Origin: an uncultured delta proteobacterium
GTDB taxonomy: Bacteria > Desulfobacterota > RBG-13-43-22
Direction: 5' to 3'
Assembly: GCA_963790475.1 (NCBI GenBank)
Contig: CAWBOS010000010.1
Coordinates: 352,001-416,000 of the forward strand
Length of the DNA: 64,000 bases
The notes below the pieces were generated by a model, which saw nothing but the letters and a program-made list of their open reading frames with translations, was not told where the DNA came from and did no database searches. Below, one piece after another: positions 16,915-32,324 of this stretch (position 1 is its first letter; the number at the start of each line of letters is the position of its first letter). Both the position numbers and the translations under genes were made by a program.

Positions 16915-17437
16915 GGATCTCCTCGGCACCGGCCTCCTTGAGCAGAGCAGCGATTTTTTCCCGTTCCATGGGTGGGCAATAAATCAGCAGGCCGAAACGA
17001 TCATCGGAAAAGCGGGGGTCATAATGGGCCGGCAGATGCAACCGGGGCAGACGGGTGTGGATGAGCATTCCGGCAAAGGAAATAAGGACCCCGCACAAAA
17101 TCAGAAACTCAAAGCCGATGATGACAAAGGGGATCCAGGGGATGATCGGCTTACCGCTGACGATAAACCGCCACTGTAAGACCGTGTAGACGGCCAGGAA
17201 AAAACCGGAAACCAGGCCGAAGAGGCCGCCAAAAAGGGTGTAATAGCGCACCGGGCTTGGCCCCTTATCCAAGGCTTCCTGGACCTCTGGGGCAGCCGAA
17301 GGGCTAAAGACGGTAAAATCCAGGTTGGCCTTTCCGACGGCCTTTAAGGCCCCCAACAGATCGTCCAAATAGATAAAGATCCCCATCAAGGCCGGCCTGG
17401 CCATCGCCCTTTCCGTTTTATTCATGGGCTTATTCAT
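16898..17437 (-). CDS. actD: ACIII subunit D (DUF3341)
   Basis: SGKP..FVIIGFEFLIL, YDPRFSDDRFGL, GAEEI. Confidence 0.88.
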   Translation of the reverse strand: MNKPMNKTERAMARPALMGIFIYLDDLLGALKAVGKANLDFTVFSPSAAPEVQEALDKGPSPVRYYTLFGGLFGLVSGFFLAVYTVLQWRFIVSGKPIIPWIPFVIIGFEFLILCGVLISFAGMLIHTRLPRLHLPAHYDPRFSDDRFGLLIYCPPMEREKIAALLKEAGAEEIHDYAG

Positions 17438-18758
17438 GGGCCGTCCTTTCCCGCCGGGGAGGTTTGACCTCTTCCTTGACTTCGGCGATGGACAGGGTGG
17501 GCAAAAATTTGGAAAACAAAAAGAAGAAAAAGAAAAAGATACTGAAGGCCCCGAAAAGGATCCCGTATTCCACCCAGGTGGGACCGGGATAATGCCTCCA
17601 GATATACGGATCATAGGCATGGGCCGGAGAGCCGATGATGATCACATAACGCTCATACCACATGCCCACGACCACCATAACGGCAATCACATACAAGGTG
17701 ATGGTGTTGGTTCGAATTTTTTTGATAAAGTAAAACAGGGGGGCGACGGAATTACCGAAGACCATCAACCAGAACCATTCTTTATAATAGCCGACCATGC
17801 GCCAGTAAAAGTTGTCCTTTTCCGTGTTATCCCCGCTGTACCAGGAGATGAAGTGCTCGGTCAGATAGGAATAGCCCATGATCAAGCCGGTCAGGATGAT
17901 GGTTTTGGCGATATTTTCCAGGGTTTCCATGGTGATGATATTTTCGAATTTATAAATGCGCCGCAAGGGGATCAACAAGATGAGTACCATGGCCAGCCCG
18001 GAATGGATGGCCCCGGCCACAAAGTAGGGGGCGAAGATGGTGCTGTGCCAGCCGGGTAGAATGGACAGGGCAAAATCCCAGGAAACCACGCTATGGACGG
18101 AGATGACCAAAGGGGTGGCTAGGGCGGCCAGAAGGACAACCGCGCCACCATAATGACGCCACTGCCAGTGGGACCCGGTCCAGTTTAAAGAAAAAAAGCC
18201 GTACACCTTGCGCCGCAGCCCTTGGGACCGATCACGGATGGCCGCCAGGTCGGGAATAAGACCGGTATACCAAAACAGGACACTGACGGTAAGATAGGTG
18301 GAAATGGCGATCACATCAAAAACCAGGGGGGATTGAAAATCAGGCCAGAGAGTGCGCTGGTTGGGATAAGGAAGAATCCAATAAACCACCCAAACCCGAC
18401 CCAGGTGAATAAAAGGAAAAAGGCCGGCCACCATAACGGCGAATACTGTCATGGCCTCGGAGCTGCGCGATATGGCCGTGCGCCAGCGGGCCCGAAATAA
18501 ATAAAGGATGGCTGAGATCAAGGTACCCGAATGAGCCAGACCGACGAAAAAAACAAAATTAACTAGATAGGTGCCCCAGGCGATGGGGTGATTGGGTCCG
18601 GCTACTCCGATGCCCATGAGGATCTGGTAGGCCCAGCAGCCGGCCCCCACCAGAATGCCGCAGAACCAGAAGGCCACGATGCCCAGGTAGAGATTTCCCG
18701 GAGGGGACATGGCCCGTAAAACTTCCTGATTGACGGTGCTGTAGTTAAGGTCTTGCAT
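17430..18758 (-). CDS. actC: ACIII NrfD-family quinol-binding subunit
   Basis: NFVFFVGLAHSGTLISAIL, HLGR, SPLVFD, SVHSVVSWDFA, GWHSTIFAPYFVAGAI. Confidence 0.93.
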   Translation of the reverse strand: MQDLNYSTVNQEVLRAMSPPGNLYLGIVAFWFCGILVGAGCWAYQILMGIGVAGPNHPIAWGTYLVNFVFFVGLAHSGTLISAILYLFRARWRTAISRSSEAMTVFAVMVAGLFPFIHLGRVWVVYWILPYPNQRTLWPDFQSPLVFDVIAISTYLTVSVLFWYTGLIPDLAAIRDRSQGLRRKVYGFFSLNWTGSHWQWRHYGGAVVLLAALATPLVISVHSVVSWDFALSILPGWHSTIFAPYFVAGAIHSGLAMVLILLIPLRRIYKFENIITMETLENIAKTIILTGLIMGYSYLTEHFISWYSGDNTEKDNFYWRMVGYYKEWFWLMVFGNSVAPLFYFIKKIRTNTITLYVIAVMVVVGMWYERYVIIIGSPAHAYDPYIWRHYPGPTWVEYGILFGAFSIFFFFFFLFSKFLPTLSIAEVKEEVKPPRRERTAHE

Positions 18759-18874: not shown

Positions 18875-21838
18875 TTACGTTTCCAAAATGTGCGTTATCC
18901 TCTTGAGATAAATGACCGCCGGCTTGGTATTCAGATAACCCAGGACCTGATAACGGCGTTTGTCATCGATCAATCGGGAAACACGGCTTTCCGGGTCGAG
19001 GAGATTTCCAAAAATTAACGTGTCGGTCGGACAGGTCTGGGCGCAGGCCGTGGTGAATTCTCCGTCTCTTACTTTTCGGCCTTCGGCCCGGGCCTGAATC
19101 TTGGCCCCGATGATCCGCTGGACACAAAAAGAGCATTTTTCCATGACTCCTTTCTGGCGGACCGTCACATCGGGGTTGAGCTGCCAGTCCAGGGGACTGG
19201 GACGGGTATAGTTAAACCAGTTGAACCGCCGTACTTTATAGGGGTCGTTTTGCAGACAAAAACGGGTGCCGATACAACGGTTGTAGGTCTGGTTGTTCAG
19301 GCCTTCCGGGTTATGGACCGGGGCATAGACCGGGCAGACCGATTCACAGGGGGCAAAGTCGCAGTGCTGGCAGAGCATGGGCAACCAGCGGGCCATTCCA
19401 TCCTTTGGGTCAAAGTAACGCTGAATCCGGATCCAGGCCATCTCCCGGCCGTTGAGGACTTGCTGTTTTTCCACCACGGCCAGGTTGTTTTCCGCATAAC
19501 AGGCCACCACGCAGGCCGAACAGCCGATGCAGCGGTCCAGGTCGACCATCATCACCCAACGGTATTCCTTATGCTGATGGACAGGGTAAAAGTCCTTTCG
19601 CGGGTCAACCCCTTGCGGTAAAGGCAGGTCGATATAAGGGATCTCTGCGGTCTTAAGGGATTGTTGATAATCCTTCAAGGTCATGACCTGCATGAGATCC
19701 CGATCCCCCTGAAAAAAACTTCCGTCCACATGGGCCAGGGGAATTTGTTTATTTAATTTCCGGAAGCTTACTTTCTGGGTGGAGTGAAAAACCCCTCCTG
19801 AGGCTGGGTCAACGGCCGGAGAAAATAATGACAGGGGATTGACCGGATGTCCATCGGCATACCTTCCGTAATTCCAATGACCCTGACCGAGAGGCAGGGC
19901 CAATAGCCCCGGAGGGACGGTATAAATGGGATAGGCCGGTCCTTCCAGGCTTCCGTAAGGAGAGCTGATCAAAAGGATATCCCCTTTTTGGATCTCCAGG
20001 ACCTTAGCCGTTTCCGGGTGGATCTCAATCCAACCGTCCCAGGTAATCTGGGTCATAGGATCGGGAAGCTCCTGAATCCAGGGCCGGTTGGCCTCTCGGC
20101 CGTCAAAGAACTGGATAGTGGGGTAAACGGTCCATTCCATCATTGGATCGGATTTGGCGGTTTCTTTTATTTTGGAGAAGGAAAAGGATGGAGGCCTTGC
20201 CGGAAAAGCGGCTTTTTTATTTTTTGGCTCCTTCCAGATTCCCCCTTGCTCCAGGGCCTTTTGCCAAAACTCCTCCGGGTTCTGGCCGGCTTCTATTTCC
20301 TTTCCTTTTTGGATCCAATATTCCCGGAGGAATTGATAATAGTCCTTCCAGGGAAATCTATCCGGTCCGCTGACCTTTTTGCCGGATGAAATAAGGAGAT
20401 CCCCTAAAGGACGGGTTTGGAAAACCGGCCCCATGACCGGCTGCATCAACCCTGACACCCCTTCTCTGGGAGAATAGTCACCCCAGGACTCCAGAAAGGT
20501 GTGATTGGGAAGGACCAGGCCGGCCAGGGTGCTGGTCTCATCGGTATAACTGGAAAAACTGACCACTAAAGGGACCGAATTCAGACCTTGCCGAAATTCT
20601 GCCGAGAAGGGAAGGTTGAAAACCGGGTTAACCTGGCCCAGGAGCAAGAGATCGATTTCTTTTCTTTTCATCCTTTCCGTAAGTTCTTTAAGCTCGGTTA
20701 AAAGCGCTGTCCGGCCATAGGCAGTTGGGCTATTGAAATCGATTACTTCTCTCGAACCTGGCTTAAGCAGGCAGAGGAGATTGGCCGCTACGGCTGCATC
20801 CAGGGCATGGGGGCCGGAAAGGCCGAGCCCTTCGGCCAGGGCCAGAGGTTTTTGTGCCCGGCTGAACCTACGGGCCAGATCCCTGATCACTGGTATCTTG
20901 ACCCCGGTTTTTTGTTGGATCTGTTCCAGGGTAAACTCCTGCAGAGTTTTCCGGAGCCACCCTTGCTGATCAGTAGAAAGATAGTTAATCGATCCCTCGT
21001 CCAACAAAACTCGGAGCATACCCAGGCCGATGAGATACTCCTCTCCCGGAGGGACGGCAATCCACAGATCGGCATTGTTGGCTGTTAAAGAAAGTCTTGG
21101 CCCCACAAAGATAAAGGGGTTTTTCCCTTGAGGTTTCAGGGCGTGAAAGGCAGCAAATTGCCGGGCAAATTCCAGGTTGGAGATCCAGGTTTCCAAAAAA
21201 CCGGCCCCAAAAGAAATAAGGAAGTCGGCCTGGTCGATGCGGTAATGGGGTAAACCGTCATATTGAAAGACGAGCCGGTTGGCCTGGCGCAAGGGCTCAT
21301 AAGCAAAGGACTCGTAGCATAATGGGCCTTGGGAACCCATTTCCGAAAGCCAGCGATCGACTAACCCTTTTAAGCTGCCGGTTATCAATTCACTTACGAA
21401 AACAATTCGTTCGCCACGGCCCTGCCGAATAAGGTCGGTCAAGGTGCGGGCCAGCACTTCTTCACCGTGTTGCCAGGACACCGCGGTCAATTTGCCGTTT
21501 GCCTGGCGTTTAAAAGGTCCCGGGAATCGATCGGGATTATAAAGCCCCTGCAAGGAGGCCTGTCCGCGGGCGCAGAGTTTCCCTTGGCTGACAGGATGAA
21601 GAGGGTTCCCCTCCAATTTGACTACCCGTCCATCCCGGTTCTTGGCCACCAGGCCGCAACCGGCCGGACACCCCCGGCAAGTGCCGGCATACCAAACCGC
21701 CTTACCGGGGATGATATCCTCAGGGGGGAAAATATAAGGAACTAAGCGGTTGGGAGTATCGGATGAGCAACCCGTGACGGCGCTTGTTCCAGCTAACCCT
21801 ATGATCTTCAAAAAGTCCCGGCGCTTGAGATCAAACAT
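18875..21838 (-). CDS. actB: ACIII subunit B (molybdopterin-oxidoreductase fold fused to 4Fe-4S domain), Tat signal
   Basis: KRRDFLK, CRGCPAGC..LCARGQ, ANRPWIQELPDP, CIGCSAC, CQHC..PCESVCP, RCIGTRFC, GVMEKCSFC. Confidence 0.93.
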   Translation of the reverse strand: MFDLKRRDFLKIIGLAGTSAVTGCSSDTPNRLVPYIFPPEDIIPGKAVWYAGTCRGCPAGCGLVAKNRDGRVVKLEGNPLHPVSQGKLCARGQASLQGLYNPDRFPGPFKRQANGKLTAVSWQHGEEVLARTLTDLIRQGRGERIVFVSELITGSLKGLVDRWLSEMGSQGPLCYESFAYEPLRQANRLVFQYDGLPHYRIDQADFLISFGAGFLETWISNLEFARQFAAFHALKPQGKNPFIFVGPRLSLTANNADLWIAVPPGEEYLIGLGMLRVLLDEGSINYLSTDQQGWLRKTLQEFTLEQIQQKTGVKIPVIRDLARRFSRAQKPLALAEGLGLSGPHALDAAVAANLLCLLKPGSREVIDFNSPTAYGRTALLTELKELTERMKRKEIDLLLLGQVNPVFNLPFSAEFRQGLNSVPLVVSFSSYTDETSTLAGLVLPNHTFLESWGDYSPREGVSGLMQPVMGPVFQTRPLGDLLISSGKKVSGPDRFPWKDYYQFLREYWIQKGKEIEAGQNPEEFWQKALEQGGIWKEPKNKKAAFPARPPSFSFSKIKETAKSDPMMEWTVYPTIQFFDGREANRPWIQELPDPMTQITWDGWIEIHPETAKVLEIQKGDILLISSPYGSLEGPAYPIYTVPPGLLALPLGQGHWNYGRYADGHPVNPLSLFSPAVDPASGGVFHSTQKVSFRKLNKQIPLAHVDGSFFQGDRDLMQVMTLKDYQQSLKTAEIPYIDLPLPQGVDPRKDFYPVHQHKEYRWVMMVDLDRCIGCSACVVACYAENNLAVVEKQQVLNGREMAWIRIQRYFDPKDGMARWLPMLCQHCDFAPCESVCPVYAPVHNPEGLNNQTYNRCIGTRFCLQNDPYKVRRFNWFNYTRPSPLDWQLNPDVTVRQKGVMEKCSFCVQRIIGAKIQARAEGRKVRDGEFTTACAQTCPTDTLIFGNLLDPESRVSRLIDDKRRYQVLGYLNTKPAVIYLKRITHILET

Positions 21839-22073: not shown

Positions 22074-22979
22074 ATGCCAAAGCTGAAATATTTTTTTGCC
22101 CTGTCCAGAACTCCCCACGGCATTCTTGACTTAGCCACCCCGGCCATAGCGGCCTTGCTCTGGTATGGGTCTATTCCCCCCCTTCAAATCCTCATCCTAG
22201 GCCTGGCAACGGCCTTTGCCGGATACACGGCGGTTTATGCTTTGAACGATTTGATGGATTATCATTTGGACCAGAAGAAACTGGAACTGGGAGGATTAGG
22301 TGACGGAGGAGGAGATTTGGATGCCCTGGTAATTCGTCATCCGTTGGCCCAGGGAGTCCTTACTTATAAAGAGGGACTGTTCTGGACAACCGCCTGGTCT
22401 TTTCTGGCCTTGATCGGCGCCTATCTGCTGAATCCTCTTTGCCTCCTTATTTTCCTGAGCGGCTGCGTCCTGGAGATGATTTACTGTCTCCTCTGGAGGA
22501 CCAGCCCGTTTCGGTCCCTTATCAGCGGTGCGGTCAAAACAGTCGGGGGTCTAGCGGCGGTTTTCGCTGTTGATCCCCATCCTTCCCCGGCCTTCCTGGT
22601 TCTCCTTTTTCTTTGGTTATTTTTTTGGGAAATCGGAGGTCAGAACATCCCCAACGACTGGATGGACATGGAGGAAGATCGGATGGTTCGAGCCAAAACC
22701 ATCCCCGTTGAGTTGGGAAAAACCTGGGCCATTTCGATTATTTTTACTTCTCTCCTTTTGGTCGTTGGTTTGAATGGAGTCCTTATGCGGTTTTCACCCT
22801 TGGGGGGGGAATTGAGCGCCGTCGTTGCTTCCCTGGGCCTGGGGATTTATTTGCTCCTTCTGCCCGGCTACCAGCTTATCAAGACGAAAGCCCGTCCTCA
22901 AGCCGTCATTTTATTTAATCGAGCCAGCTATTATCCCTTGGCTGTGCTTACAGTCATCAGCCTGTCCCTCGTGATTTGA
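22074..22979 (+). CDS. UbiA-superfamily prenyltransferase
   Basis: NDLMDYHLD and NDWMDMEED Asp-rich motifs, multiple TMs. Confidence 0.88.
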   Translation: MPKLKYFFALSRTPHGILDLATPAIAALLWYGSIPPLQILILGLATAFAGYTAVYALNDLMDYHLDQKKLELGGLGDGGGDLDALVIRHPLAQGVLTYKEGLFWTTAWSFLALIGAYLLNPLCLLIFLSGCVLEMIYCLLWRTSPFRSLISGAVKTVGGLAAVFAVDPHPSPAFLVLLFLWLFFWEIGGQNIPNDWMDMEEDRMVRAKTIPVELGKTWAISIIFTSLLLVVGLNGVLMRFSPLGGELSAVVASLGLGIYLLLLPGYQLIKTKARPQAVILFNRASYYPLAVLTVISLSLVI

Positions 22980-23001
22980 ATCTGTCGCCAGGAGAATTTC
23001 C

Positions 23002-23745
23002 ATGGAAGAGATCGATCCCAAAGAACTGCCGAAATTCAACGGGAAAGACGGGAATCCGGTTTATATCGCTCATCGTGGCCGGGTTATTGATGTGAGCGCC
23101 AGCAAGTTGTGGAATACCGGCCTTCATATGAACCGACATCATGCCGGAAATGATCTCACGACTGATATCCAAGCCGCTCCTCATGGACTGGAGGTTTTGG
23201 ACCGCTACCCGCAGGTGGCGGTACTCAAGAAAGAGGCCTCGACGGAAAAGCCCATACCGAAATTTTTGGCCTCTCTACTTAAACGATTTCCCATGCTCCG
23301 GCGACATCCCCATCCCATGACCATCCATTTTCCTATTGTCTTTTTGTTTGCCGCCCCCGTATTCACGATTCTTTTCCTTCTAACCGGAAGCCGGAGTTTT
23401 GAAACAACGGCCTGTCATTGTTTGGGGGCCGGCCTCTTTTTTACTCCGATAGCCATGGGTACCGGTTATTACACCTGGTGGCTGAATTATCGGGCTAGAT
23501 CCCTTAGACCGGTGAGGATCAAGAAAAAGGTTTCCGTGATCCTTCTGGGGATTGCCGTGATCGCCATGGGCTGGCGTATTTTGGATCAGGCTATTCTGAT
23601 TTCTCTGAGGCCGATCAGCTGGATTTATTTGATTCTTGTTTTTTCCCTGCTCCCCTTGGTCTCGGTCATGGGCTGGTTCGGCGCTCAGTTAACCTTTCCG
23701 ATTGAAAAGGAAATTCCCGCCGAAGATGAGAAGGGGAAGAGTTAA
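23002..23745 (+). CDS. Cytochrome b5-like heme/steroid-binding domain fused to a DUF2231-like membrane domain
   Basis: FNGKDGNPVYIA..GRVIDVS..W..GLHMNRHHAGNDLT..APHG, then HPMTIHFPI and 4 TMs. Confidence 0.85.
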   Translation: MEEIDPKELPKFNGKDGNPVYIAHRGRVIDVSASKLWNTGLHMNRHHAGNDLTTDIQAAPHGLEVLDRYPQVAVLKKEASTEKPIPKFLASLLKRFPMLRRHPHPMTIHFPIVFLFAAPVFTILFLLTGSRSFETTACHCLGAGLFFTPIAMGTGYYTWWLNYRARSLRPVRIKKKVSVILLGIAVIAMGWRILDQAILISLRPISWIYLILVFSLLPLVSVMGWFGAQLTFPIEKEIPAEDEKGKS

Positions 23746-24032
23746 GCCCCTGACCTTCAGTTAAGATGGAATCGGCCGCGGAGGCAGGGAAACCTTGGGG
23801 CGGAAGCTTTACTTTTCTCTTCAGAGATATACAGTATTTTGATTTGACAAATACTATCCTTCCTGTATTCCTTTCAGATTTTTATTGAGTAAAATTAGTC
23901 CTAAAAAAATAGTGCTCCCTGAATGGAAGGAATGCGTTTCGCCCTTTTCCGCCTAAGAAAAGGGAGTGGCCTATAACCAAGTAAAATTTTGAATATTGAT
24001 CCGGATTATATGGAATGAAGGAGGATATAACC

Positions 24033-24395
24033 ATGAAAAACAAGAACGGTTCACGAAAAAATAGCGCCTTGGCTTTATCATTTACAGCCGGTAGTTTGAT
24101 TGGAGCGGCGGCAGGTTTACTTTTGGCACCCTGGGAAGGACGTCAAGCCAGGGGAAAACTAAAAGAATTTGGGGAGGAAGTCAAGGAGACATCGATTCGC
24201 TTATCCAATAATTGGAAGGAAAAGGCCGTCGGTTTTATGGAAAAAAGAAAAAATAGTTTTCCCCCGGAAAAGGACAACCTTACGGCTGGTCATGATGCCA
24301 AAGAGGCCGAAACCGGAGTCGGAAAAGAGATTCCATTGGCTCCTGAGGGACATAGCGATGAGGATTTCCTTCATCCAGCCCCGGTCTTCGAGTAA
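24033..24395 (+). CDS. YtxH-domain protein
   Basis: GSLIGAAAGLLLAPWEGRQAR. RBS AAGGAGG before ATG 24033. Confidence 0.75.
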   Translation: MKNKNGSRKNSALALSFTAGSLIGAAAGLLLAPWEGRQARGKLKEFGEEVKETSIRLSNNWKEKAVGFMEKRKNSFPPEKDNLTAGHDAKEAETGVGKEIPLAPEGHSDEDFLHPAPVFE

Positions 24396-24488
24396 TTATA
24401 TAGAACAACCCCCGGTTTGAAACTGCTCTGGCAGGTCAAGGGGAAAGTCGGTCTACGCTTGATGGGGAATTTGATACTCTGTGCAGGG

Positions 24489-25316
24489 CTAAACAGAAGG
24501 GCTGTTTTTACAACCCCAGTGTACCACGGCAATCCCGTTGGTCAGGGGTCGATAGTTTACCTGAAGAAACCCGATTTCTTCCAGGAGACGAGTCAATTCT
24601 TTCGGCGAAGGGAAAAGCCGTATGGATTCGGGCAGGTAGGTGTAGGCCTGCCGGGATCCTCCAATAAGGAGTCCCAACAGGGGCATAATATGAAAAGAGT
24701 AAAAATCGTATAACCGGCGGAACAGTGGGTTTGTGGGGTTGGAGAATTCGAGACAGATAAATCGTCCCCCGGGTTTGAGGACCCGATGCATCTCCTTAAA
24801 GCCTTCCTCCATATGGGTCAGGTTTCGGAATCCAAAGCCGACCATGGCCGCATCAAATTGGCCGGATCCAAAGGGCAGCCGTTCTGCATCTCCCTGGGCA
24901 TAAAATATTTTCTTCCTGAACGAGGCATTGGTCGATTTTCGGCGTCCGATTTCCATCATCTTCCGATTAATATCGACTAAGACGACTTTTCCCGAACCTT
25001 TCATTCGCTTTAAGGCCAGGACGGAAAGATCACCTGTGCCGCCGCAGATGTCCAGGAGACTGTCTTCCGGCTGTAATCTTAAGAGATTGACAGTGGTACG
25101 TTTCCAGAGGTAATGAATACCGAAGCTCAGAATGGTATTCATCAAATCGTATTTTTGGGCTACCGTATCGAAATGGTCGCGCACCCAACGGACTTTTTCC
25201 TGGGTCGGGACTTTACGAAATCCGAAATGGGTCGTTTCCTGATCACCTTCCGATTTTTTGCCGGCTTTATTTTCTTCCGCTTCCGGCTTGTTTTCCGAGA
25301 ATTTATGAACAGTCAT
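24489..25316 (-). CDS. ubiE: UbiE/MenG-family quinone C-methyltransferase
   Basis: THFGF, KYDLMNTILSFGIHYLWK, LDICGGTGD, GDAERLPF, RVLKPGG, YTYLPESI. Confidence 0.92.
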   Translation of the reverse strand: MTVHKFSENKPEAEENKAGKKSEGDQETTHFGFRKVPTQEKVRWVRDHFDTVAQKYDLMNTILSFGIHYLWKRTTVNLLRLQPEDSLLDICGGTGDLSVLALKRMKGSGKVVLVDINRKMMEIGRRKSTNASFRKKIFYAQGDAERLPFGSGQFDAAMVGFGFRNLTHMEEGFKEMHRVLKPGGRFICLEFSNPTNPLFRRLYDFYSFHIMPLLGLLIGGSRQAYTYLPESIRLFPSPKELTRLLEEIGFLQVNYRPLTNGIAVVHWGCKNSPSV

Positions 25317-25329
25317 CCTTGGTTCCTCT

Positions 25330-26184
25330 TCAGGCCGGAATTTCTATAGGAAGACCGGATTCCAGGAAAATAGGTTTCAGGTATTGGAGACTGGCCTGGC
25401 CGGCTTCTTCGGGCATGTCCACATAAGGGTAAAGTTCCAGGCTGATATCGCCTTGATATCCCAGGGCAGACATGGCTTTAAAGAGCTTCAAATAGGGAAT
25501 AGCCCCTTGTCCGGCAATAAGATGCTGGTGGACCCGGCTGGGGGCAATATCCTCAAGATGAACATGACCTATCCAGGGGAAAAGATCTTCAAAAACTTTT
25601 ACCGGGTCCTCTCCGGCACAAAAAAAATGACCCATGTCAAAATTCAATCCAACGTTGGGCGAATTCACTTCCAGGATAAACGATTTAAATTGAGAGCTGT
25701 TCTCCAGCAGAAGATCAGGTTCGGGCTCGATCAGGATTTGGATCCCCAAGGACACGGCCGTGGGGATGACCTGTTCCAAACCTTGGTGGAATAATAATAA
25801 GGCCTTTTCCCGGCTCATCTCCTTCAGGGGCCCCCCGGGTGGAACCGATATATTCCTACAACCTAAAATGTCGGCAACCTTAAGACAATCCAGGGTATGA
25901 CGGATCCGCATCCCTCGTCTCTGTTCTTCGGCCTCAATCCAGGAAGGAAGATAGGTGTCTCCAACGGCGAAGAGGGTAAAGCTGTTCAGGTTGGTTATAG
26001 TCAACCCCTGGTCGGAAATAGATCTCTTGAGATGCCTCATTTCCACTTCTCCGAAATCCGGCGGATAGAGATGAGGGCGGTCACACATAATCTCCAGGCC
26101 TTTAAACCCCAAAGAAGCGATCTTGGCCACGGAATCCTCCAGGGAAAATTTGACAAAGGCATTAGTGCTGTAACCGAACTTCAT
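25330..26184 (-). CDS. Sugar-phosphate isomerase/epimerase (xylose-isomerase-like TIM barrel)
   Basis: FGYSTN, IEPEP, NFDMGH, HVHLEDI, HQHL, LELY metal-binding pattern. Confidence 0.88.
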   Translation of the reverse strand: MKFGYSTNAFVKFSLEDSVAKIASLGFKGLEIMCDRPHLYPPDFGEVEMRHLKRSISDQGLTITNLNSFTLFAVGDTYLPSWIEAEEQRRGMRIRHTLDCLKVADILGCRNISVPPGGPLKEMSREKALLLFHQGLEQVIPTAVSLGIQILIEPEPDLLLENSSQFKSFILEVNSPNVGLNFDMGHFFCAGEDPVKVFEDLFPWIGHVHLEDIAPSRVHQHLIAGQGAIPYLKLFKAMSALGYQGDISLELYPYVDMPEEAGQASLQYLKPIFLESGLPIEIPA

Positions 26185-26228
26185 TGACTCCTCAATTTCT
26201 TATCAATCGTTGATGTTTTGCAGGGATG

Positions 26229-27410
26229 CTAAGAGGTAACCGGCTTCCGGGATAGAGAGGTATCACAAACCCTTTCCAACCCATCCAGACCAAATAACTG
26301 GTCTTGAAAAGTCAAGGGGGGGTCCTTCCCAACAGGTTTCTTGAAAAAGAAACTTAGTTCCGAAATAGGCCCTGATTTTCCTGACAGATGAACAGCCGTC
26401 ATCCATCGGGCCAGATCCAATATCAAAGGGGCCGCTAAGACCGAGTCCCGTCCTTGGAAGTCCAGTCGAAGACTCATGGGCAAACCGAACAAGCCCAGGA
26501 AGTCGATAACATCCCAGGCTTCTTTGGCATCTCCGCGAGGCGGATAATAATCAATAGAGACCTTGTGTGAAACCGCTGAATACCTCTTTCCCACTTTATA
26601 CCCCAGGATTTCATCCAGGAGTTCCGTCTTATTTTTAAGTTTTCCCCGGGCCTTGTCCGGGTCGGCCAGGTTCGCCCCGTCCGCATTCCCGAGGATATTC
26701 AGGCTGTACCAGCCATCGATAAAGAGATTTCTGGCTTTGAAGGCTGAGGCCAGGACAACCTTCAAATAAGTCTGACCGGTCTTTCCGTCCCGTCCGCACC
26801 AGGGGACCCCTTTTTTAATGGCTTCCCGAAGGAGCAATGGCAGCTCCACTTCATTAGAGGTGAAATTAATTATCGGGAGTCTGCATTGGATGGCAGCTAA
26901 AACGTAAGCCATATCCGGGAAGGTCCGCGGGTCCAATTCCGAAAAGAGCTGTGACAAGGTACGACAGTGGGATAAATCAGGAGAAGCAGATGCCGGCAGA
27001 AGGTTGATAAAAACAGGACGGCTGTTGGGAAACCGGGTTTTCAATTGCCGGATTTCTTTCACCCTCTGTCCGACCCAGGATTTAAGGTCCAGGGGAGCTT
27101 CCGGGATTTCTATTATAGGAATTCGGTTTAAGACGGGGGCGTAAGGCCTCCAGATTTCTTCCGTAAGAACCCCTTGATCTCTTATGGAGTCAATAAGGCT
27201 TTTTCGACTTTTATCCCATCCGGCTATTTGGATAGCTTGAGGGGATCCAAGATAGGGGAACTTTTCGGCCGTGGTCAAGCTGGGGAGCACCAGACTTGGG
27301 TTCTGGCTTAGGGCGGACACGGCCACGGCCAGGGTGGAAGCTACAGCGCCTTTGGCACCGGCGACCAATAGTAAAATGGGAGAAAGGAAGGGATCGGAAG
27401 ATGAGGTCAT
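26229..27410 (-). CDS. ino1: myo-inositol-1-phosphate (inositol-3-phosphate) synthase
   Basis: GRDGKTGQT, YSLNILGNADG, DYYPPRGDAKEAWD, GRDSVLAAPLILDL. Confidence 0.88.
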   Translation of the reverse strand: MTSSSDPFLSPILLLVAGAKGAVASTLAVAVSALSQNPSLVLPSLTTAEKFPYLGSPQAIQIAGWDKSRKSLIDSIRDQGVLTEEIWRPYAPVLNRIPIIEIPEAPLDLKSWVGQRVKEIRQLKTRFPNSRPVFINLLPASASPDLSHCRTLSQLFSELDPRTFPDMAYVLAAIQCRLPIINFTSNEVELPLLLREAIKKGVPWCGRDGKTGQTYLKVVLASAFKARNLFIDGWYSLNILGNADGANLADPDKARGKLKNKTELLDEILGYKVGKRYSAVSHKVSIDYYPPRGDAKEAWDVIDFLGLFGLPMSLRLDFQGRDSVLAAPLILDLARWMTAVHLSGKSGPISELSFFFKKPVGKDPPLTFQDQLFGLDGLERVCDTSLSRKPVTS

Positions 27411-27690
27411 GGTTTATAATTTAATATTCCTTTGAGTATCCAATAGCATAAACAGGATAGGAAAAAAGGGCAAGGAAAAAATCTGATTTTCAATTGGCAC
27501 TTGTGGCAGCAAGTTAAAATGTTCCCTGTAAGAGTGGAGACAATCCGACCCTCAGGGGATTGATGACTACGGACTGAGGGAGGAAAGGTCTTCGAGGAGA
27601 TTGCCTTTTTAAATGAAGATGCAGCAGACTTTGTGCCGGTCAGAACCTCCGTTGTGCGGGAAAAGTCAAAACGATATGGAGCGGATGATG

Positions 27691-28478
27691 ATGAAATTTC
27701 CTTTTGAAGTTCCTTTTGAGGACGTGCAGGCTGATCTTGACCAGTATGTGACCGCGATATTTTCCTGTAAGGTTTCGTCCGTACTCTCGACCGGGATATC
27801 CGGCTGGCACCGATAACACCCCTTAAGATCAGCAGCCAGAGCGCGGTACGGCTGGATGCCTTGGTCATGACCGCATGTGAGTTCCTTAAAAAGAATGTCC
27901 CGAATGTGGCGCGGAACAAAATACATCGGCTTGACAAGGCTGATACGAGAACAGGTCTGGATGGAATAAGATCACTTGCCGATATCGGGGTTCCTTATGC
28001 CATGCTGCTGTATGAGCGGTTCCTTGGCAGACCTTTCGCGGGTCACCGAGACTCCGTGAGCGATCTTATCGGAGACAGTCTGGAATCGGCAATTGAGGAT
28101 GTGTTAAGCAAGGCAGGTATCACCTACCGGAAGACAAAAAGGGCGGAGAAAATTCAAGATTTTGATCAAACGCCGGATTTTATTATTCCCAGTGAATTCA
28201 ATCCACAGGCTATTATTGAGGCGAAAATAACCGAGGACGATGGTACGGCGCGTGACAAAGTCGCCCGCATCCAACGCCTGGGTACGCTAAGTATGAAAGG
28301 ACAGCCGGAGGGAAAGCCGAAGTACGAAGTCATCGCCTGCATTGCGGGTCGAGGTTTCGGGGTTCGGCGGGAAGACATGAAAAGGATAATCTTGGCAACA
28401 GGGGGGAAGGTGTTTACCCTACAGAATCTGGACAAGCTCGTTGAGTGTACGAAGTTGAAGGAATTTAGAACAAAGTAA
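27691..28478 (+). pseudogene. Frameshifted PD-(D/E)xK type II restriction-endonuclease-like gene
   Basis: MKFPFEVPF..IFSC (ATG 27691) changes frame at about 27770 to GFVRTLDR..PDFIIP..IEAKITEDDGTARDK. No intact methyltransferase adjacent. Confidence 0.6.
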
Positions 28479-28599: not shown

Positions 28600-29307
28600 C
28601 TAAGAAGCCATCTTACAGACGCCGGATGGGCACTGTTTTCCTTTGATGTGGCCTTCAAATTCTTCTTTGAAGTTGGACAAAACCGACAGGATGATGTGGG
28701 ACACCTTGCCGGCAAAGGAGCAATAGGGGGCCTGTTTCATGAGGACTATCAGGGATTCCATTTCGGTCACGGCATTAGCCGGTGCCTGGCCGCATCTTAT
28801 GGCGGTGATTAAATCGGCCAGTCTCTGTATCCCCAGTCGGCAGGGGGCACATTTGCCGCAGGATTCATCGTAATGGAATTTGATCAGATATTCGGCGATC
28901 TCTACCATACACAAAGAGGGGTCCATGGCCATGATACAACCCGTGGCCTTTTCCCAGATCAAATCACCGCGGATGGATTGAAGCGGGTTGAGTCGCAATA
29001 AGGGGAAAACGATCTTGCCCTGTTGAACGGTTTCTTTCAGAATGGCCTCAATATGACCTTCTTTGACCTTGTGGTAGAAAACACCCAGATAAGGGAAACT
29101 TAAAAAAGCCCCATCCTGACAAGTCCCGGAACATCCGCATTTGGCCGGTTCTACGACCACCGGGATCTTCAGGCGTTCTGCTTCAGCAATAAGACCTTTA
29201 TAGATCGATTCCGCCCCGCAGGTTTTAGCCTTGGGATTGCGGCACACCGTAATCTTCGGGATGGTGGTAATTAGGGGTTCTGCGATATTTAGAGCGGTTT
29301 TAGCCAT
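28600..29307 (-). CDS. Thioredoxin-like [2Fe-2S] domain fused to the NuoF/HydB C-terminal [4Fe-4S] domain; no FMN/NADH domain
   Basis: VC..CGA..CGCSGTC..G..Y.KV; ESCGKCAPCRLG..C; FEGHI..KQCPSGVC. Confidence 0.8.
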   Translation of the reverse strand: MAKTALNIAEPLITTIPKITVCRNPKAKTCGAESIYKGLIAEAERLKIPVVVEPAKCGCSGTCQDGAFLSFPYLGVFYHKVKEGHIEAILKETVQQGKIVFPLLRLNPLQSIRGDLIWEKATGCIMAMDPSLCMVEIAEYLIKFHYDESCGKCAPCRLGIQRLADLITAIRCGQAPANAVTEMESLIVLMKQAPYCSFAGKVSHIILSVLSNFKEEFEGHIKGKQCPSGVCKMAS

Positions 29308-29325: not shown

Positions 29326-30744
29326 TTAAGATATAATCGTCTTGCAGGCCGTCCGGGCCAGATCAAGAAACCAGGCCGGCAAGGTACCCATCAAGAGTAT
29401 GGCCAGGATCAACCCGTAGTTCAATAATCGATTGGAGAAACTCAAGGTCACCGCCGGTAACCCGTCGGGGTCCTGTCCGTAGGCTGAGCGCACGATATTC
29501 AGGTAATAATAAATTGAAATCGCCGCATTCACTGCGGCAATGATCACCAAAGCCAGGTGCCCTTGATTCAAGGCGGCGGCGAAAAGAAAAAATTTTCCGG
29601 TAAATCCGGCTGTAGGTGGAATACCGGCCAGGGCGAAGGCCCCCACCGCCAAGGTAAAGGCTAATAAAGGAGAACGCCGGTACAGTCCGGAAAGGTCGCT
29701 GATGGTGACATTTTCTCCTTCGCGGGAAACGGCACATATCACCAAAAAGCAGGCCAGGTTCATTAATAAATAAGCGGAGATGTGGAATATGGCGGCAGAA
29801 AAGCCAACGGAGTTCAGGGTCAAGACCCCCATCAGGACATAACCGGCATGGGCGATACTGGAATAGGCCAGCAGGCGTTTAAGGTCTTTTTGGACCAAAG
29901 CCGCCAGGTTTCCAAAGGTCATGGAAACAATTGCCAGAAGAACCAGGACTTGAATCAAATCAACGGCCCCGTTTCCGGCCAGGCTGACTAACCGAAGCAA
30001 CAAGGCTACGGCCCCCACTTTTGGCATGGTGGCCACAAAAGACACGGTTTCATTGGCCGCCCCCTGGTAAATATCCGGGGTCCAGAAATGGAAGGGGACC
30101 ACCGCCAGCTTAAAGAAAAACCCACAGAGAACCAGGAGAAGCCCGATAACGGCTATGGGTTCCTTTAACAGCAAAGGCATCTTCTGGAGAATGTCCATCA
30201 AATAGGTGGATTGGGTGACTCCAAAGATATAACTCATGCCGAAAAGCATAACCCCGGTGGCCGCGGCCCCGAAGATAATGTATTTAATAGCCGCTTCCAT
30301 TTGGTTGCCGCCAACCTGATTGCGGATCGGGATCAGGACATAAATGGAGTAAGAAGACAGCTCCATGGCGATAAAAATGGCTAACAGCTCGACACTGCTG
30401 ACCATCAGCATCAGACCCAGGGAGCTGAGACTCAGAAACATATAAAATTCCGGTTGAAGACGTTCCTCGATGCTTTTGAGCTTCCGTCCCAGTCCAATGA
30501 CCAGGAACAGGCCGAGACTAAGCAGACATTTGAATGTTTGTGAGAACAGGTCAACCCGATAAGCCTTATAAAAGAGCTCCCCCGAGGCATTGAGGCTTAA
30601 CAGGCTAATGATTACCACGAGAGCGGAAAGGAAAAAGGCCATTCCCTGATTCAATGCAGCTGACGATTTCCACAAGGATTGGCAGAAAAAGATCAGGGCC
30701 ATTAAAAGTAGAAAGGTTTCCGGTAGAAATAACAAGAAATTCAT
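29326..30744 (-). CDS. nuoN: Complex I subunit N
   Basis: EAAIKY, FKLAVVPFHFWTPDIYQGA, KRLLAYSSIAHAGY. Confidence 0.93.
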   Translation of the reverse strand: MNFLLFLPETFLLLMALIFFCQSLWKSSAALNQGMAFFLSALVVIISLLSLNASGELFYKAYRVDLFSQTFKCLLSLGLFLVIGLGRKLKSIEERLQPEFYMFLSLSSLGLMLMVSSVELLAIFIAMELSSYSIYVLIPIRNQVGGNQMEAAIKYIIFGAAATGVMLFGMSYIFGVTQSTYLMDILQKMPLLLKEPIAVIGLLLVLCGFFFKLAVVPFHFWTPDIYQGAANETVSFVATMPKVGAVALLLRLVSLAGNGAVDLIQVLVLLAIVSMTFGNLAALVQKDLKRLLAYSSIAHAGYVLMGVLTLNSVGFSAAIFHISAYLLMNLACFLVICAVSREGENVTISDLSGLYRRSPLLAFTLAVGAFALAGIPPTAGFTGKFFLFAAALNQGHLALVIIAAVNAAISIYYYLNIVRSAYGQDPDGLPAVTLSFSNRLLNYGLILAILLMGTLPAWFLDLARTACKTIIS

Positions 30745-30769
30745 TATAATTCGTTCCTCGGTAAAATAC

Positions 30770-30795
30770 TCAAAGCTGAAAGCTCCAAGCTCAAA
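30770..30795. repeat. Heptamer array (TCAAAGC-type) between nuoM and nuoN
   Basis: TCAAAGC TGAAAGC TCCAAGC TCAAA. Confidence 0.7.
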
Positions 30796-30827
30796 CAAAA
30801 TACTTAAACAAGAAAGCGTTCAATCTT

Positions 30828-32324
30828 TTATTTCACTAAAGCCAAAGCACTTCCGGCCTGGACTTGCTGGACCAAGTGGTTCACGCTGGCATGCATGACA
30901 TCCAAAAAGGGGCCCGGTGAAAAACCAATCCACAAGACGAATATGGCCAGCGGGACCAGATAAACGATCTCCCGGGTATTCATATCTTTAAAGGAGGGGT
31001 TTCCTTCACCTCCCCAGGCGATCTTCTGCAGCAACCGGAGCATATAGGCGGCAGCCAAAACCACCCCTGGGATGGCAACGGCGCCGATCAGCTTGTTATC
31101 CAAAAAGGTGCCGATTAAAACCAGGAGCTCGCCTACAAAACTGTTGGTCCCGGGAAAGGCCATGGAAGAAAGACTGAAAAAACCTAAAAACCCGATGTAA
31201 ATGGGCATAATTTTGCTTATCCCGGAGTTGACCGTAATCAACCTGCTGTGGCTTCTCTCATAAATGATCCCTACGCAGAGAAAGAGTGCCCCGGTGGTGA
31301 TGCCGTGATTGATCATCTGCAGGATGGCCCCTTCCAGTCCGGATTTATTGAAGAGAAAGGTACCCAAGGTGACAAACCCCATGTGGGCCACGCTGGAATA
31401 GGCGATCAACCGTTTCATGTCGCTTTGCCCCAAGGCCACATACCCGCCATAAATGATGGAGATGATGGAGATCCAAAGGACATAGGGGGCAAAGTAGACA
31501 CTGGCTTGGGGGAGGATAGGCAAACAAAAGCGCACGAAACCGTAAGTCCCCATTTTCAACAGTACGCTGGCCAGGATGACACTGCCCGCGGTCGGGGCCT
31601 CCACATGCGCGGCCGGCAACCAGGTATGGAGCGGGGCCATCGGGACTTTGATGGCGAAAGCGATTCCCATGGCCAGGAAGACCCAGAATTGAAAGTTAAA
31701 GGAGTAGGTATGGGTCATCAATTCCGGGATGCTGAAGGTGCCGGTCTTTACATAAAAGGCGATCATGGCCACCAGGAGGAAGACGCTGCCGGCCATGGTG
31801 TAGATGAAGAACTTGATCGAAGCATAAACCTTGGCCGGGCCACCCCAGACGGCTATCAATAGATACATGGGGACCAGCATGGCCTCAAAGAAAATATAAA
31901 ATAGAACGAAATCCAGAGCCGAGAAAACCCCGACGCAAGCTGTTTCAATCAAAAGGAGACAGAACAGAAATTCTTTGACCCGTTTCTCGATGTATTTCCA
32001 GGAAGCCAGGATACAAATGGGCGTCAAGAGAGTGCTTAACAGGACCAGAAAGAGGCTGATACCGTCTACCCCCAAGGTATAATTGATTTTGAATCCGGGG
32101 ATCCAGGGTATATGTTCCCCAAACTGGTATTTATAGGTGGAAATATTAAAATTAAAATAAAGAGGAAGAGAAAGGGCAAAGTTAACAATACTAATGATCA
32201 AGGCCCAGACTTTGGCCGTCGTTTCATTTCGCAGCATGAAAAGGACCACGGCTCCGCCCAGGGGCAAAAAAATAAGTGTGCTTAAGATCGGATAATTAAG
32301 CTGATTGGGAATGAGAAAATCCAT
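30828..32324 (-). CDS. nuoM: Complex I subunit M
   Basis: LGVDGIS, KFFIYT, PLHTWLPAAHVEAPTAGS, LIAYSSVAHMG. Confidence 0.95.
   Translation of the reverse strand: MDFLIPNQLNYPILSTLIFLPLGGAVVLFMLRNETTAKVWALIISIVNFALSLPLYFNFNISTYKYQFGEHIPWIPGFKINYTLGVDGISLFLVLLSTLLTPICILASWKYIEKRVKEFLFCLLLIETACVGVFSALDFVLFYIFFEAMLVPMYLLIAVWGGPAKVYASIKFFIYTMAGSVFLLVAMIAFYVKTGTFSIPELMTHTYSFNFQFWVFLAMGIAFAIKVPMAPLHTWLPAAHVEAPTAGSVILASVLLKMGTYGFVRFCLPILPQASVYFAPYVLWISIISIIYGGYVALGQSDMKRLIAYSSVAHMGFVTLGTFLFNKSGLEGAILQMINHGITTGALFLCVGIIYERSHSRLITVNSGISKIMPIYIGFLGFFSLSSMAFPGTNSFVGELLVLIGTFLDNKLIGAVAIPGVVLAAAYMLRLLQKIAWGGEGNPSFKDMNTREIVYLVPLAIFVLWIGFSPGPFLDVMHASVNHLVQQVQAGSALALVK

Follow-up and report, generated by a model that had tools for sequence, protein, structure and literature searches.

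Genes for a putative cyclitol-derived, prenylated and methylated compound beside an ACIII-cbb3 respiratory operon in an uncultured Desulfobacterota bacterium

A stretch of 64,000 nucleotides from the genome of an uncultured delta proteobacterium of the phylum Desulfobacterota (contig CAWBOS010000010.1, positions 352,001 to 416,000; this whole stretch is called the window) carries five genes next to the operon of an alternative complex III (ACIII) quinol oxidase and a cbb3 oxidase. They encode a divergent sugar-phosphate cyclase of the inositol-phosphate synthase (Ino1) type, a xylose-isomerase-like TIM barrel, a methyltransferase of the UbiE/COQ5 family, a UbiA-family prenyltransferase, and a cytochrome b5/DUF2231 membrane protein. 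According to the reading proposed here, to which we assign a probability of about 0.45, the five genes would be a conserved module for a prenylated, C-methylated compound with a ring derived from a hexose phosphate, likely a non-menaquinone carrier of the benzoquinone type for ACIII and the cbb3 oxidase. The part of this reading that concerns gene organization alone is firmer, and it is highly probable that the five genes act as a single functional module with a tie to ACIII.

Arrangement of the module and its link to ACIII and cbb3 genes

The cyclase (26229-27410, 393 residues), the TIM barrel (25330-26184, 284 residues), and UbiE (24489-25316, 275 residues) are encoded on the minus strand, with gaps of 44 and 13 nucleotides between consecutive open reading frames (ORFs). 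On the plus strand, the UbiA-family gene (22074-22979, 301 residues; its product is called UbiA-like) is followed after 22 nucleotides by the b5/DUF2231 gene (23002-23745, 247 residues). The tight minus-strand run had been described in the initial annotation of this DNA, as had the divergent transcription of the UbiA-like and b5/DUF2231 genes from actB; the first is confirmed by the ORF list together with Pfam and NCBIfam matches, and the second by an intergenic region of 235 nucleotides between UbiA and actB. The adjacency to ACIII-cbb3 genes is equally clear, with ActB, ActC, ActD, ActF, a cytochrome c, CcoN, and CcoO-P on one side and NuoL/M/N on the other. The three plus-strand genes, namely the two already mentioned and one for a YtxH-like protein, are convergent with the cyclase-TIM-UbiE run, and the distal end of the nuo operon runs on the same strand into this run. 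The order of NADH dehydrogenase, the five genes, ACIII quinol oxidase, and cbb3 oxidase reads as one block.

Relatives of the cyclase number 202 among 268 pattern-matched stretches of 185,579 species genomes, and the counts of genome loci given below refer to the best 80 of these 202 (55-70% identity), all labelled Desulfobacterota or Deltaproteobacteria. Carriers of the cyclase include metagenome-assembled genomes labelled Desulfosarcina, Desulfatitalea, and Desulfatibia. In 77 of the 80 loci, the next gene on the downstream side of the cyclase is that of the TIM barrel, the three misses being at a contig edge. Also, a metagenome scan with the TIM alignment as query gave at least 509 TIM relatives in metagenome contigs; of the 52 loci with room on the upstream side, 35 have the cyclase as the next gene there. 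UbiE follows the TIM barrel directly in 17/80 genome loci and in 11 of the 53 metagenome loci with room for it. Compact clusters are found in other families as well (G, C, L, and f numbers denote genomes, contigs, loci, and families): in G044, a UbiA gene converges with an opposite-strand run of a methyltransferase, UbiE, TIM, and cyclase, in G223 the same order is seen with b5/DUF2231 in addition, and in L224 and L225 a cyclase-TIM-UbiG-like-UbiE run converges with UbiA. Moreover, several unrelated families have the cyclase-TIM pair flanked by UbiE on one side and by UbiA or UbiB on the other. The four-gene combination singled out in the initial annotation is, then, a recurrent module of other genera and families, but it is compact in some lineages only, with UbiA within 8 kb of the cyclase in just 2 of the 80 genome loci. 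Because the arrangement recurs in other genera and families, it goes beyond chance.

Presence elsewhere in the genome is more common. When the first 50 cyclase-bearing genomes were searched in full, a UbiA-like orthologue (43-63% identity) turned up in 43 of them. In a phylum sample of 301 genomes, of which 11 have a cyclase orthologue and 35 a UbiA-like gene, UbiA-like is present in 7/11 cyclase-bearing genomes versus 28/290 cyclase-free genomes (Fisher p=4e-5 by genome and 0.005 by family, values that overstate the association because relatives are not independent).

The same sample associates the module with ACIII. ActD, found in 59/301 genomes overall, is present in 23/35 genomes with UbiA-like versus 36/266 without it, and in 9/11 genomes with the cyclase versus 50/290 without it; at the family level, it occurs in 9/15 UbiA-like families versus 21/83 of the others (p=0.013). 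Physical proximity points in the same direction. The divergent layout of UbiA and ActB is seen in G011, G012, and G018 of the window's own family, in G217, G274, and G301 (f37), and in G300 (f35), that is, in families f1, f35, and f37, and at least three families have the module immediately beside ACIII. A run of cyclase, TIM, and UbiE genes comes 5 kb after ACIII-cbb3 in G161, and in the metagenome contig L249 the cyclase and TIM genes lead straight into actB-C-D-F, cytochrome c, and ccoN. Also, the window shares with G003 and G009 the position of nuoN, immediately upstream of the cyclase. A co-occurrence of these gene families with act and cco genes, raised earlier as a check on the annotation, is thus borne out both by shared neighbourhoods and by the ActD counts.

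The cyclase-TIM pair and the alternation of two cyclase families

The cyclase passes the two Pfam models of its family, PF01658 with 102.3 bits (gathering threshold 27) and PF07994 with 60.2 bits (threshold 25), and fails the INO1 equivalog TIGR03450 (26.5 bits versus a cut-off of 638). Its best matches in the PDB are myo-inositol phosphate synthases (MIPS), namely 7nwr (151.6 bits) and the A. fulgidus enzyme 1u1i (130.6 bits). These matches span residues ~163-363 only, where the motifs of the catalytic half align, and the N-terminal 160 residues are divergent. The motifs GKTGQT, NILGN.DG, K..(N)K, D.K.AWD, DS.LAAPL, and FFFK are kept in comparison with 7nwr and 1u1i, and G18/K20/G21, D208/K210, K257/K261, K296, D322, and K357 are invariant among 18 cyclase orthologues; the residues that we take to be catalytic are those presumed so for the A. 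fulgidus MIPS. Retention of the catalytic and NAD-binding motifs of MIPS would be consistent with a competent enzyme. The protein therefore shares domains and motifs with canonical Ino1 but differs from it in its N-terminal region, in its equivalog score, in its coupling to a TIM barrel, and in being a second copy, since a separate, ordinary MIPS-like gene (~27% identity) is present elsewhere in the same genome. Products other than inositol phosphate are known in this family, which includes a synthase of five-membered cyclitol phosphates (PDB code: 6k96) that matches the cyclase at 50 bits. A third class of MIPS was also observed, formed by ORFs of ~400-560 residues that are 37-47% identical to the window cyclase, mostly in the C-terminal half; it is present in 38/301 genomes, nine of them with a UbiA-like gene (e.g., G064:C3:268582 and G220:C3:3449442).

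The TIM barrel (PF01261, 131.5 bits versus 31.1 gathering) was modelled with a pLDDT of 90.6. The top Foldseek matches of the model are the isomerase Art22 (TM 0.82), UlaE and MJ1311 (TM 0.8), ketose 3-epimerases, IolE, and AsbF, and the last also matches at 39 bits in the PDB search. This suggests a fold resembling metal-dependent isomerases, epimerases, and dehydratases of ketoses and ketocyclitols. The protein scores below every NCBIfam equivalog, with hydroxypyruvate isomerase being the best (65.5 versus 353 bits), followed by IolO (52/300), IolE (40/290), and EboE (24/250).

The most informative locus for the function of the pair is found in G220 (family f86, locus L179). In this genome, a TIM orthologue of 59% identity is followed after 2 nucleotides by a protein of 414 residues that resembles dehydroquinate synthase (DHQS), with 126 bits for PF01761; it passes NF004852 (551.7 versus 333) and fails aroB (224 versus 305). 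Downstream are a convergent UbiG (TIGR01983, 261 bits versus a cut-off of 103), UbiA-like, a small conserved ORF, and UbiB, and ccoN, cytochrome c, actF, and actD appear ~5 kb further on. The metagenome locus L265 presents a comparable set, formed by UbiE, UbiA-like, UbiG, the TIM barrel (64% identity), a DHQS-like protein 51% identical to that of G220, UbiB, and the small ORF. Hence, two unrelated families of sugar-phosphate cyclases alternate beside the same TIM barrel within clusters of quinone-tailoring genes. Such a swap is hard to explain unless the cyclase supplies a carbocycle to the pathway. The initial annotation had proposed a prenylated and methylated product derived from a cyclitol, and the part of that proposal concerning the cyclitol-derived ring gains weight from the DHQS-like swap, although the cyclase cannot be an obligatory component, as discussed below for the genomes that have UbiA-like without it.

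The small ORF just mentioned (80-100 residues, no family match) always precedes the UbiB associated with these clusters (L153:12305-12553, L154, L166, L168, L179:8922-9185, L206, and L265).

The UbiA-like and b5/DUF2231 proteins, and a comparison with ebo clusters

UbiA-like belongs to its superfamily with confidence (PF01040, 103.6 bits versus a gathering threshold of 34.2), and it falls below all NCBIfam cut-offs, the best being ubiA_other (71/180.8), with UbiA itself at 35/275. Against the models of UbiA, MqnP, DGGGPS, and ChlG, its scores are at most 59 bits, with at most 28 for MqnP, and the NCBIfam scan gives no match to the EboC family. Both Asp-rich motifs (N58, D59, D62, and D66; D195, D198, E201, and D202) are invariant or nearly so in 24 orthologues. 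From the profile scores, UbiA-like would be a deep branch that is remote from the characterised ones. The only result of a single-sequence search of the PDB was DAD1, a spurious match that we discarded as a relative. In G300, the UbiA-like gene beside ACIII, which contains an internal TAA, appears to be split in two pieces (L181:8818-9697), and either a pseudogene or an assembly error is possible.

The gene for b5/DUF2231 adjoins that of UbiA-like, before or after it, in 16/23 loci. Its DUF2231 match reaches 60.7 bits, and that to Cyt-b5 23.2 bits, slightly below the cut-off of 23.7; a fold search confirms the b5 domain, which is N-terminal and matches the archaeal b5 proteins 6nzx and 6vz6 (45-49% identity, TM 0.90 on the target). 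The same fold search gives no PDB match for the DUF2231 membrane domain, and a full-text search shows that DUF2231 has hardly been studied, with a single paper mentioning it. Residues H42, H46, and H61 are invariant, as is the motif R101-H-P-H-P-M106..H109, a His-rich segment at the start of the membrane domain. Another DUF2231 protein, in which the partner domain is a cytochrome c instead of a b5, is encoded just upstream of UbiA-like in G009 (L155:6371-7111) and likewise in G003, and the host genome (G000) has an orthologue of it at C12:1498189-1498902.

A combination of sugar-phosphate cyclase, xylose-isomerase-like TIM barrel, and UbiA-superfamily enzyme is also the logic of ebo clusters, as presented in passages of two sources (PMC5133447; bioRxiv 10.64898/2026.05.21.724671). 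The passages on ebo in the second of them describe a cyclitol-derived hydroxylated aromatic compound that is prenylated by the UbiA-like EboC, and an Actinomycetota version in which Ino1 and isomerase/dehydratases take the place of the DHQS-like EboD (bioRxiv 10.64898/2026.05.21.724671). Relative to the ebo genes of thallusin biosynthesis, the swap reported here runs in the opposite direction, from Ino1-like to DHQS-like. This likeness supports a different account, in which the product would be a prenylated cyclitol or meroterpenoid that is not a quinone but a lipid, carrier, or signal, methylated by UbiE, and in which the link to ACIII would reflect shared regulation or adaptation of the membrane to oxygen. 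The failure of UbiA-like to match any model of a quinone prenyltransferase is in line with it, as are the variable neighbourhoods of most cyclase-TIM pairs. Moreover, the best PDB match of the UbiA-like profile, at 26.9 bits only, is DGGGPS, which O-prenylates a polyol phosphate, a point that tells against a quinone and favours such a lipid; homology is compatible with prenylation of an aromatic carbon as well as of a polyol oxygen.

However, the window cluster departs from ebo in several respects. The ORFs between 22074 and 27937 include neither EboA, nor TatD (EboB), nor the phosphatase EboF, and the absence of TatD and phosphodiesterase genes noted in the initial annotation is supported by the ORFs and their Pfam matches. 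The low EboE score of the TIM barrel and the lack of an EboC match add to this difference. In addition, the partners are UbiE, UbiG, UbiB, and b5/DUF2231, and the recurrent quinol-tailoring enzymes among them have high scores (277 bits for UbiE, 261 for UbiG, and 436 for UbiB). Finally, the operons that the module repeatedly joins are those of ACIII, cbb3, and nuo, and not those of secondary metabolism. A non-quinone product is for these reasons distinctly unlikely.

Methyltransferase paralogues and the quinone pathways of the host

UbiE of the window passes PF01209 (249/20.1), TIGR01934 (256.1/158.35), and NF001244 (236/216), and it remains below the models for a single quinone, namely MpqE (277.6/335), NF001242 (277.1/351), and MenG_heptapren (189.3/419.85). 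Two classes of UbiE exist in its relatives, type A with at least 54% identity to the window protein and type B with 32-41%. Type B, and not type A, is located beside MqnA/D homologues in G023, G036, G039, G352, and G359, and in G352 and G359 type A is beside the UbiA-like gene. In the window's family (n=21), 12 genomes have type A, 12 have UbiA-like, and 11 have both, and the two genes adjoin wherever the assembly permits. The simplest reading of these paralogues would be a second prenylation-methylation module that coexists with menaquinone synthesis. Many Mqn-positive genomes, e.g., G322, G323, and G326, have type A as their sole UbiE, so it can probably methylate demethylmenaquinone and, by analogy, may be bifunctional where it is the only one, as in the window genome. 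The E. coli UbiE is itself bifunctional.

The host genome (6.34 Mb in 20 contigs, completeness 100%, contamination 9.68%) lacks most of the usual signs of a menaquinone pathway. A search of the whole genome gives no match to MqnA/D (PF02621), and only 20.6 bits for MqnC (cut-off 428), 31.3 for MqnE (434.55), and 95.3 for MenD (244). A MenB/BadI-like gene reaches 323.6 bits (cut-off 342.7) and sits among acyl-CoA genes, and two MenA-like genes (106.1 and 105 bits, cut-off 102) occur in unrelated contexts. Neither MqnA/D nor MenD is above the cut-off in any of the 21 genomes of the family, 18 of which still carry a methylase of the UbiE family; any naphthoquinone ring made use of in this family might stem from salvage or from an undescribed pathway. 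The cyclase is present in 5 of these 21 genomes, plus two fragments at contig ends. The idea that the cyclase-TIM pair replaces a missing pathway to the menaquinone head group was rejected, given that all 21 genomes lack MqnA/D and MenD regardless of the cyclase and that MqnA/D is present in 35 of 50 genomes carrying the cyclase. Likewise, UbiA-like is found in none of ten Mqn-positive relatives, and its identification as the futalosine prenyltransferase MqnP was rejected because of this absence.

These data bear on the most conservative interpretation, namely ordinary menaquinone genes, where UbiE would be MenG, UbiA-like a variant prenyltransferase of 1,4-dihydroxy-2-naphthoate or of the MqnP type, and the cyclase and TIM barrel part of an unrelated sugar metabolism. 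The two MenA-like genes and the Mqn-positive genomes that rely on type A are compatible with it. Also, a whole-genome search shows that UbiE of the window is the only full-length UbiE of the host, and for this reason it may serve menaquinone as well, a point that detracts from a dedicated role in a second pathway. Similarly, the late steps of the futalosine pathway (MqnP, MqnL/M, and MqnK/MenG) resemble the module in that enzymes of the UbiA and UbiE families and, in G003 and G009, UbiD/UbiX-like proteins are encoded in one cluster. Nonetheless, the low scores of UbiA-like on MqnP, its absence from the Mqn-positive relatives, the missing MqnA-E of the host, the position of the MenB-like gene, and the preference of mqn clusters for type B where both types occur all argue against it, as does the recurrent linkage of the cyclase-TIM pair with UbiE, UbiA, and UbiG across families. 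We consider this interpretation very unlikely. The initial annotation had stated that the gene combination does not fit the Men, Mqn, or Ubi pathways; the model scores below cut-off and the distribution of UbiA-like place the genes outside the Men, Mqn, and ebo sets.

Regarding ubiquinone, the host has only part of the set. UbiE, UbiG-like genes, and one ABC1 kinase gene are present, no match to UbiD or to UbiX-like proteins was detected in the genome, and a single U32 peptidase was found instead of a UbiU/V pair. The two UbiG-like genes are away from the cluster (C6:782848-783426 and C6:829256-829825; 162 and 159.5 bits versus the TIGR01983 cut-off of 103). Both are located beside very large ORFs (1502 and 1567 residues). 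No ubiquinone pathway can be recognised in this genome.

Modules without a cyclase and the possibility of a conventional benzoquinone

Several observations weigh against a sugar-derived benzoquinone. In the first place, 28 of the 35 UbiA-like genomes of the phylum sample, and 6 of the 12 in the window's own family, have no cyclase orthologue, therefore the source of the ring must differ there. Since UbiA-like/UbiE modules occur without it, the cyclase is an accessory or alternative supply and not an obligatory part of the module. Conversely, no quinone gene is found less than 8 kb away from 63 of the 80 cyclase-TIM pairs. What surrounds the pairs differs from locus to locus (ABC transporter, NUDIX, cupin, Lon, DUF169, ADH, and others), and no such neighbour recurs in more than 15/80 loci. 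About a third of the TIM orthologues of the metagenome loci have no adjoining cyclase, and in these stand-alone loci no alternative cyclase is seen, the neighbours being PfkB kinases, Usp, a cNMP/PilZ protein, and solute-binding proteins. Moreover, the clusters of G003 and G009, the two closest cyclase-bearing relatives, contain UbiD and UbiX-like genes besides the cyclase-TIM pair, which would fit a carboxylated aromatic precursor such as 4-hydroxybenzoate. No O-methyltransferase is encoded in the host cluster, and the two UbiG-like genes are elsewhere in the genome. UbiB/ABC1 is only mildly enriched (22/35 UbiA-like genomes versus 120/266 others, p=0.07) and, being carried by 142/301 genomes, was discarded as a marker of benzoquinone synthesis. 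To our knowledge, only menaquinones have been reported for cultured Desulfobacterales. In the main text of a 2026 survey of bacterial quinones, ubiquinone is predicted within Desulfobacterota for the class GWC2-55-46 only (PMC13386864).

The insertion in G009 (L155:9607-13881, with a matching one in L156 of G003) lies between b5/DUF2231 and UbiE and comprises UbiD (475 residues), the UbiX-like protein (202 residues), an ABC ATPase, and an ORF of 250 residues, all of them absent from the host genome.

Part of this evidence would be expected if the product were a conventional benzoquinone, similar to ubiquinone, plastoquinone, or methylplastoquinone, made from chorismate-derived 4-hydroxybenzoate by UbiA-like, type A UbiE, and b5/DUF2231, with UbiB, UbiD/X, and UbiG where present. 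The cyclase-TIM pair would then have another job, such as the synthesis of a solute, an antioxidant, or a lipid head group, and would be co-regulated with micro-oxic respiration. The UbiD and UbiX-like genes of G003 and G009, the cyclase-free modules, and the many cyclase-TIM pairs far from quinone genes agree with this alternative, and type A UbiE scores on the MpqE and UbiE models as high as on any. Patchiness is not a problem for it either, given that in the main text on the methylplastoquinone pathway of aerobic Nitrospirota mpqA, mpqB, and mpqE are conserved and mpqC, mpqD/X, and mpqQ are patchy (PMC11874023). Also, UbiB may be able to decarboxylate without UbiD/X, according to a recent preprint (bioRxiv 10.64898/2026.03.05.709815). 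On the other hand, it does not account for the insertion of the cyclase-TIM pair between UbiE and either UbiA or UbiB across several unrelated families, for the presence of UbiA-like in most cyclase genomes, or for the swap of non-homologous cyclases inside UbiG/UbiA/UbiB clusters. The host lacks UbiD and UbiX, and no ring hydroxylase is present in the clusters examined, although no genome-wide search for flavin monooxygenases was made. A conventional benzoquinone is thus considered unlikely.

A comparison with the two benzoquinone systems closest to the module gives a similar picture. The ubiquinone pathway, including its O2-independent version with UbiT/U/V and the pathway of GWC2-55-46, shares with it a UbiA-superfamily enzyme and UbiE, UbiG/UbiB in some clusters, and the context of high-affinity oxidases in a mostly anaerobic phylum; it differs in the low score of UbiA-like on the UbiA model and in the UbiD/X and UbiU/V pair missing from the host, and UbiC is absent from the cluster, where a cyclase and a TIM barrel are found instead. 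In the case of methylplastoquinone, the similarity consists of the score of type A UbiE, highest on MpqE, and of a mosaic pathway in which the prenyltransferase, the UbiB-like kinase, and the UbiE-like methylase are conserved while decarboxylase and chorismate lyase are patchy. However, that score is below the cut-off, the phylum is a different one, no methylase of the PlqQ/MpqQ type was identified, and a cyclase-TIM pair is unreported there. The C1 hydroxylase of the methylplastoquinone pathway is unassigned in the main text of the corresponding report, which never mentions inositol (PMC11874023).

Full-text searches of the literature gave no description of this gene combination, although the supplementary tables of two studies might cover the lineages concerned (PMC13386864; PMC11874023). 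The main text of the quinone survey notes genomes with neither menaquinone pathway and does not flag the lineages that bear the module, which might appear in its supplements (PMC13386864).

Proposed pathway and its implications

The data show the gene families with their conservation, linkage, and co-occurrence; from these we infer each chemical step, a quinone as the product, and a role for this quinone with ACIII. The Ino1-like enzyme would cyclise a hexose phosphate through NAD-dependent oxidation and aldol chemistry to give a cyclitol or ketocyclitol phosphate. The TIM barrel, presumably metal-dependent, would then isomerise and dehydrate this intermediate by enediolate chemistry of the kind used by IolE and AsbF, shifting the carbonyl and eliminating water or phosphate until the ring aromatises, leading to a polyhydroxybenzene with its ring oxygens already present. 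UbiA-like would attach the polyprenyl chain, and type A UbiE would methylate a ring carbon; elsewhere, UbiG-like enzymes or small methyltransferases dependent on S-adenosylmethionine (SAM) could add further methyl groups. Finally, b5/DUF2231 would supply or remove electrons, either for the aromatising oxidation or for the handling of quinol and quinone. The outcome would be a benzoquinol obtained without chorismate lyase, decarboxylase, or hydroxylase.

The chemistry of inososes is relevant for the predicted ring. 1,2,3,4-Tetrahydroxybenzene has the oxygenation pattern of the ubiquinone ring, and deoxy-inososes give 1,2,4-trihydroxybenzene. Under acid, myo-inosose dehydrates to 1,2,3,4-tetrahydroxybenzene, as described in part of one report (PMC11467972). 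A more specific version of the proposal could then be considered, where a ubiquinone-like ring is made from a sugar phosphate with all the oxygens of a tri- or tetrahydroxybenzene coming from the sugar, with no need of chorismate, decarboxylase, O2, or hydroxylase, and serves a dedicated nuo-ACIII-cbb3 chain. The ring would be formed by an Ino1-like cyclase, or a DHQS-like one in other lineages, and by a TIM-barrel dehydratase, and it would be completed by the UbiA-like, UbiE, and UbiG-like enzymes. This version is less likely than not.

All the respiratory benzoquinone routes that we know of start from an aromatic acid, and their oxygens are introduced by O2-dependent flavin or di-iron hydroxylases or by UbiU/V. 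The finding would combine isoprenoid-quinone biosynthesis with the ebo-like logic that converts a cyclitol into a prenylated aromatic compound, and there is a substantial chance that it represents a new route to oxygenated benzoquinones. If the proposal is correct, making the ring from a sugar with its oxygens already in place would constitute a new logic of biosynthesis, the third for oxygenated benzoquinones and free of hydroxylases, and it would extend ebo chemistry from signalling to bioenergetics. It would also show how Desulfobacterota, which are largely anaerobic, could provide a fitting carrier for an ACIII-cbb3 chain, and it would bear on the debate about whether high-potential quinones predate atmospheric oxygen. 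The genes are candidates for steps without an assigned enzyme in methylplastoquinone biosynthesis and in ubiquinone producers that have no decarboxylase. Under the same proviso, the route might explain organisms in which a ring hydroxylase or a decarboxylase is still missing. Should the product turn out to be something other than a quinone, the data still describe a widespread, conserved module that is connected with oxygen respiration in sulfate reducers of sediments, with a chemistry not yet described.

Neighbouring genes and minor observations

The respiratory genes beside the module, all on the minus strand, are assigned by Pfam and NCBIfam matches. ActB (18875-21838), ActC (17430-18758), ActD (16898-17620, 132.4 bits), ActF (15670-16929), and a multihaem cytochrome c (15122-15673) constitute one operon, where the domains of ActB are recognised and NrfD is matched twice (95.6 and 37.1 bits), as expected for ACIII. 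They are followed by CcoN (13366-14748; COX1, 270.4 bits) and a CcoO/P-like protein (12389-13387; FixO, 116.7 bits, plus Cytochrome_CBB3). Next on the downstream side of the cbb3 genes, a P-type ATPase of the heavy-metal type is encoded (7424-9889); it contains an HMA domain and probably has an ordinary role in copper delivery of the CcoI type.

Two small ORFs of the region are of doubtful significance. The YtxH-like protein (24015-24395, plus strand; PF12732, 43.5 bits) is a questionable member of the module, its gene being present at the matching position in a single relative (G011), and in other lineages a SAM methyltransferase of ~200 residues occupies that place. An ORF of 176 residues (27407-27937, minus strand) overlaps the start of the cyclase by 4 nucleotides, and it is a doubtful gene that matches neither Pfam nor NCBIfam models and for which no homologue was detected among the 80 related loci or among 8 loci from the window's family. 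As for regulatory signals between 21600 and 28800, promoter-like sites number 8 (6.6 +/- 2.7 expected), which is uninformative, and terminator-like sites 20 (10.7 +/- 3.3 expected), the latter mostly within genes. Look-ups in protein atlases returned generic family names only.

On the other side of the module, Pfam matches on the minus strand identify NuoN (29326-30798), NuoM (30828-32324), and two further antiporter-like subunits of the nuo operon (32419-34185 and 34429-35967). After nuoN comes a stand-alone protein of 235 residues (28600-29307, minus strand) that consists solely of the C-terminal 4Fe-4S domain of NuoF, and fragments resembling this domain (32% identity) are also found near the UbiA-like gene in L187 and L188.

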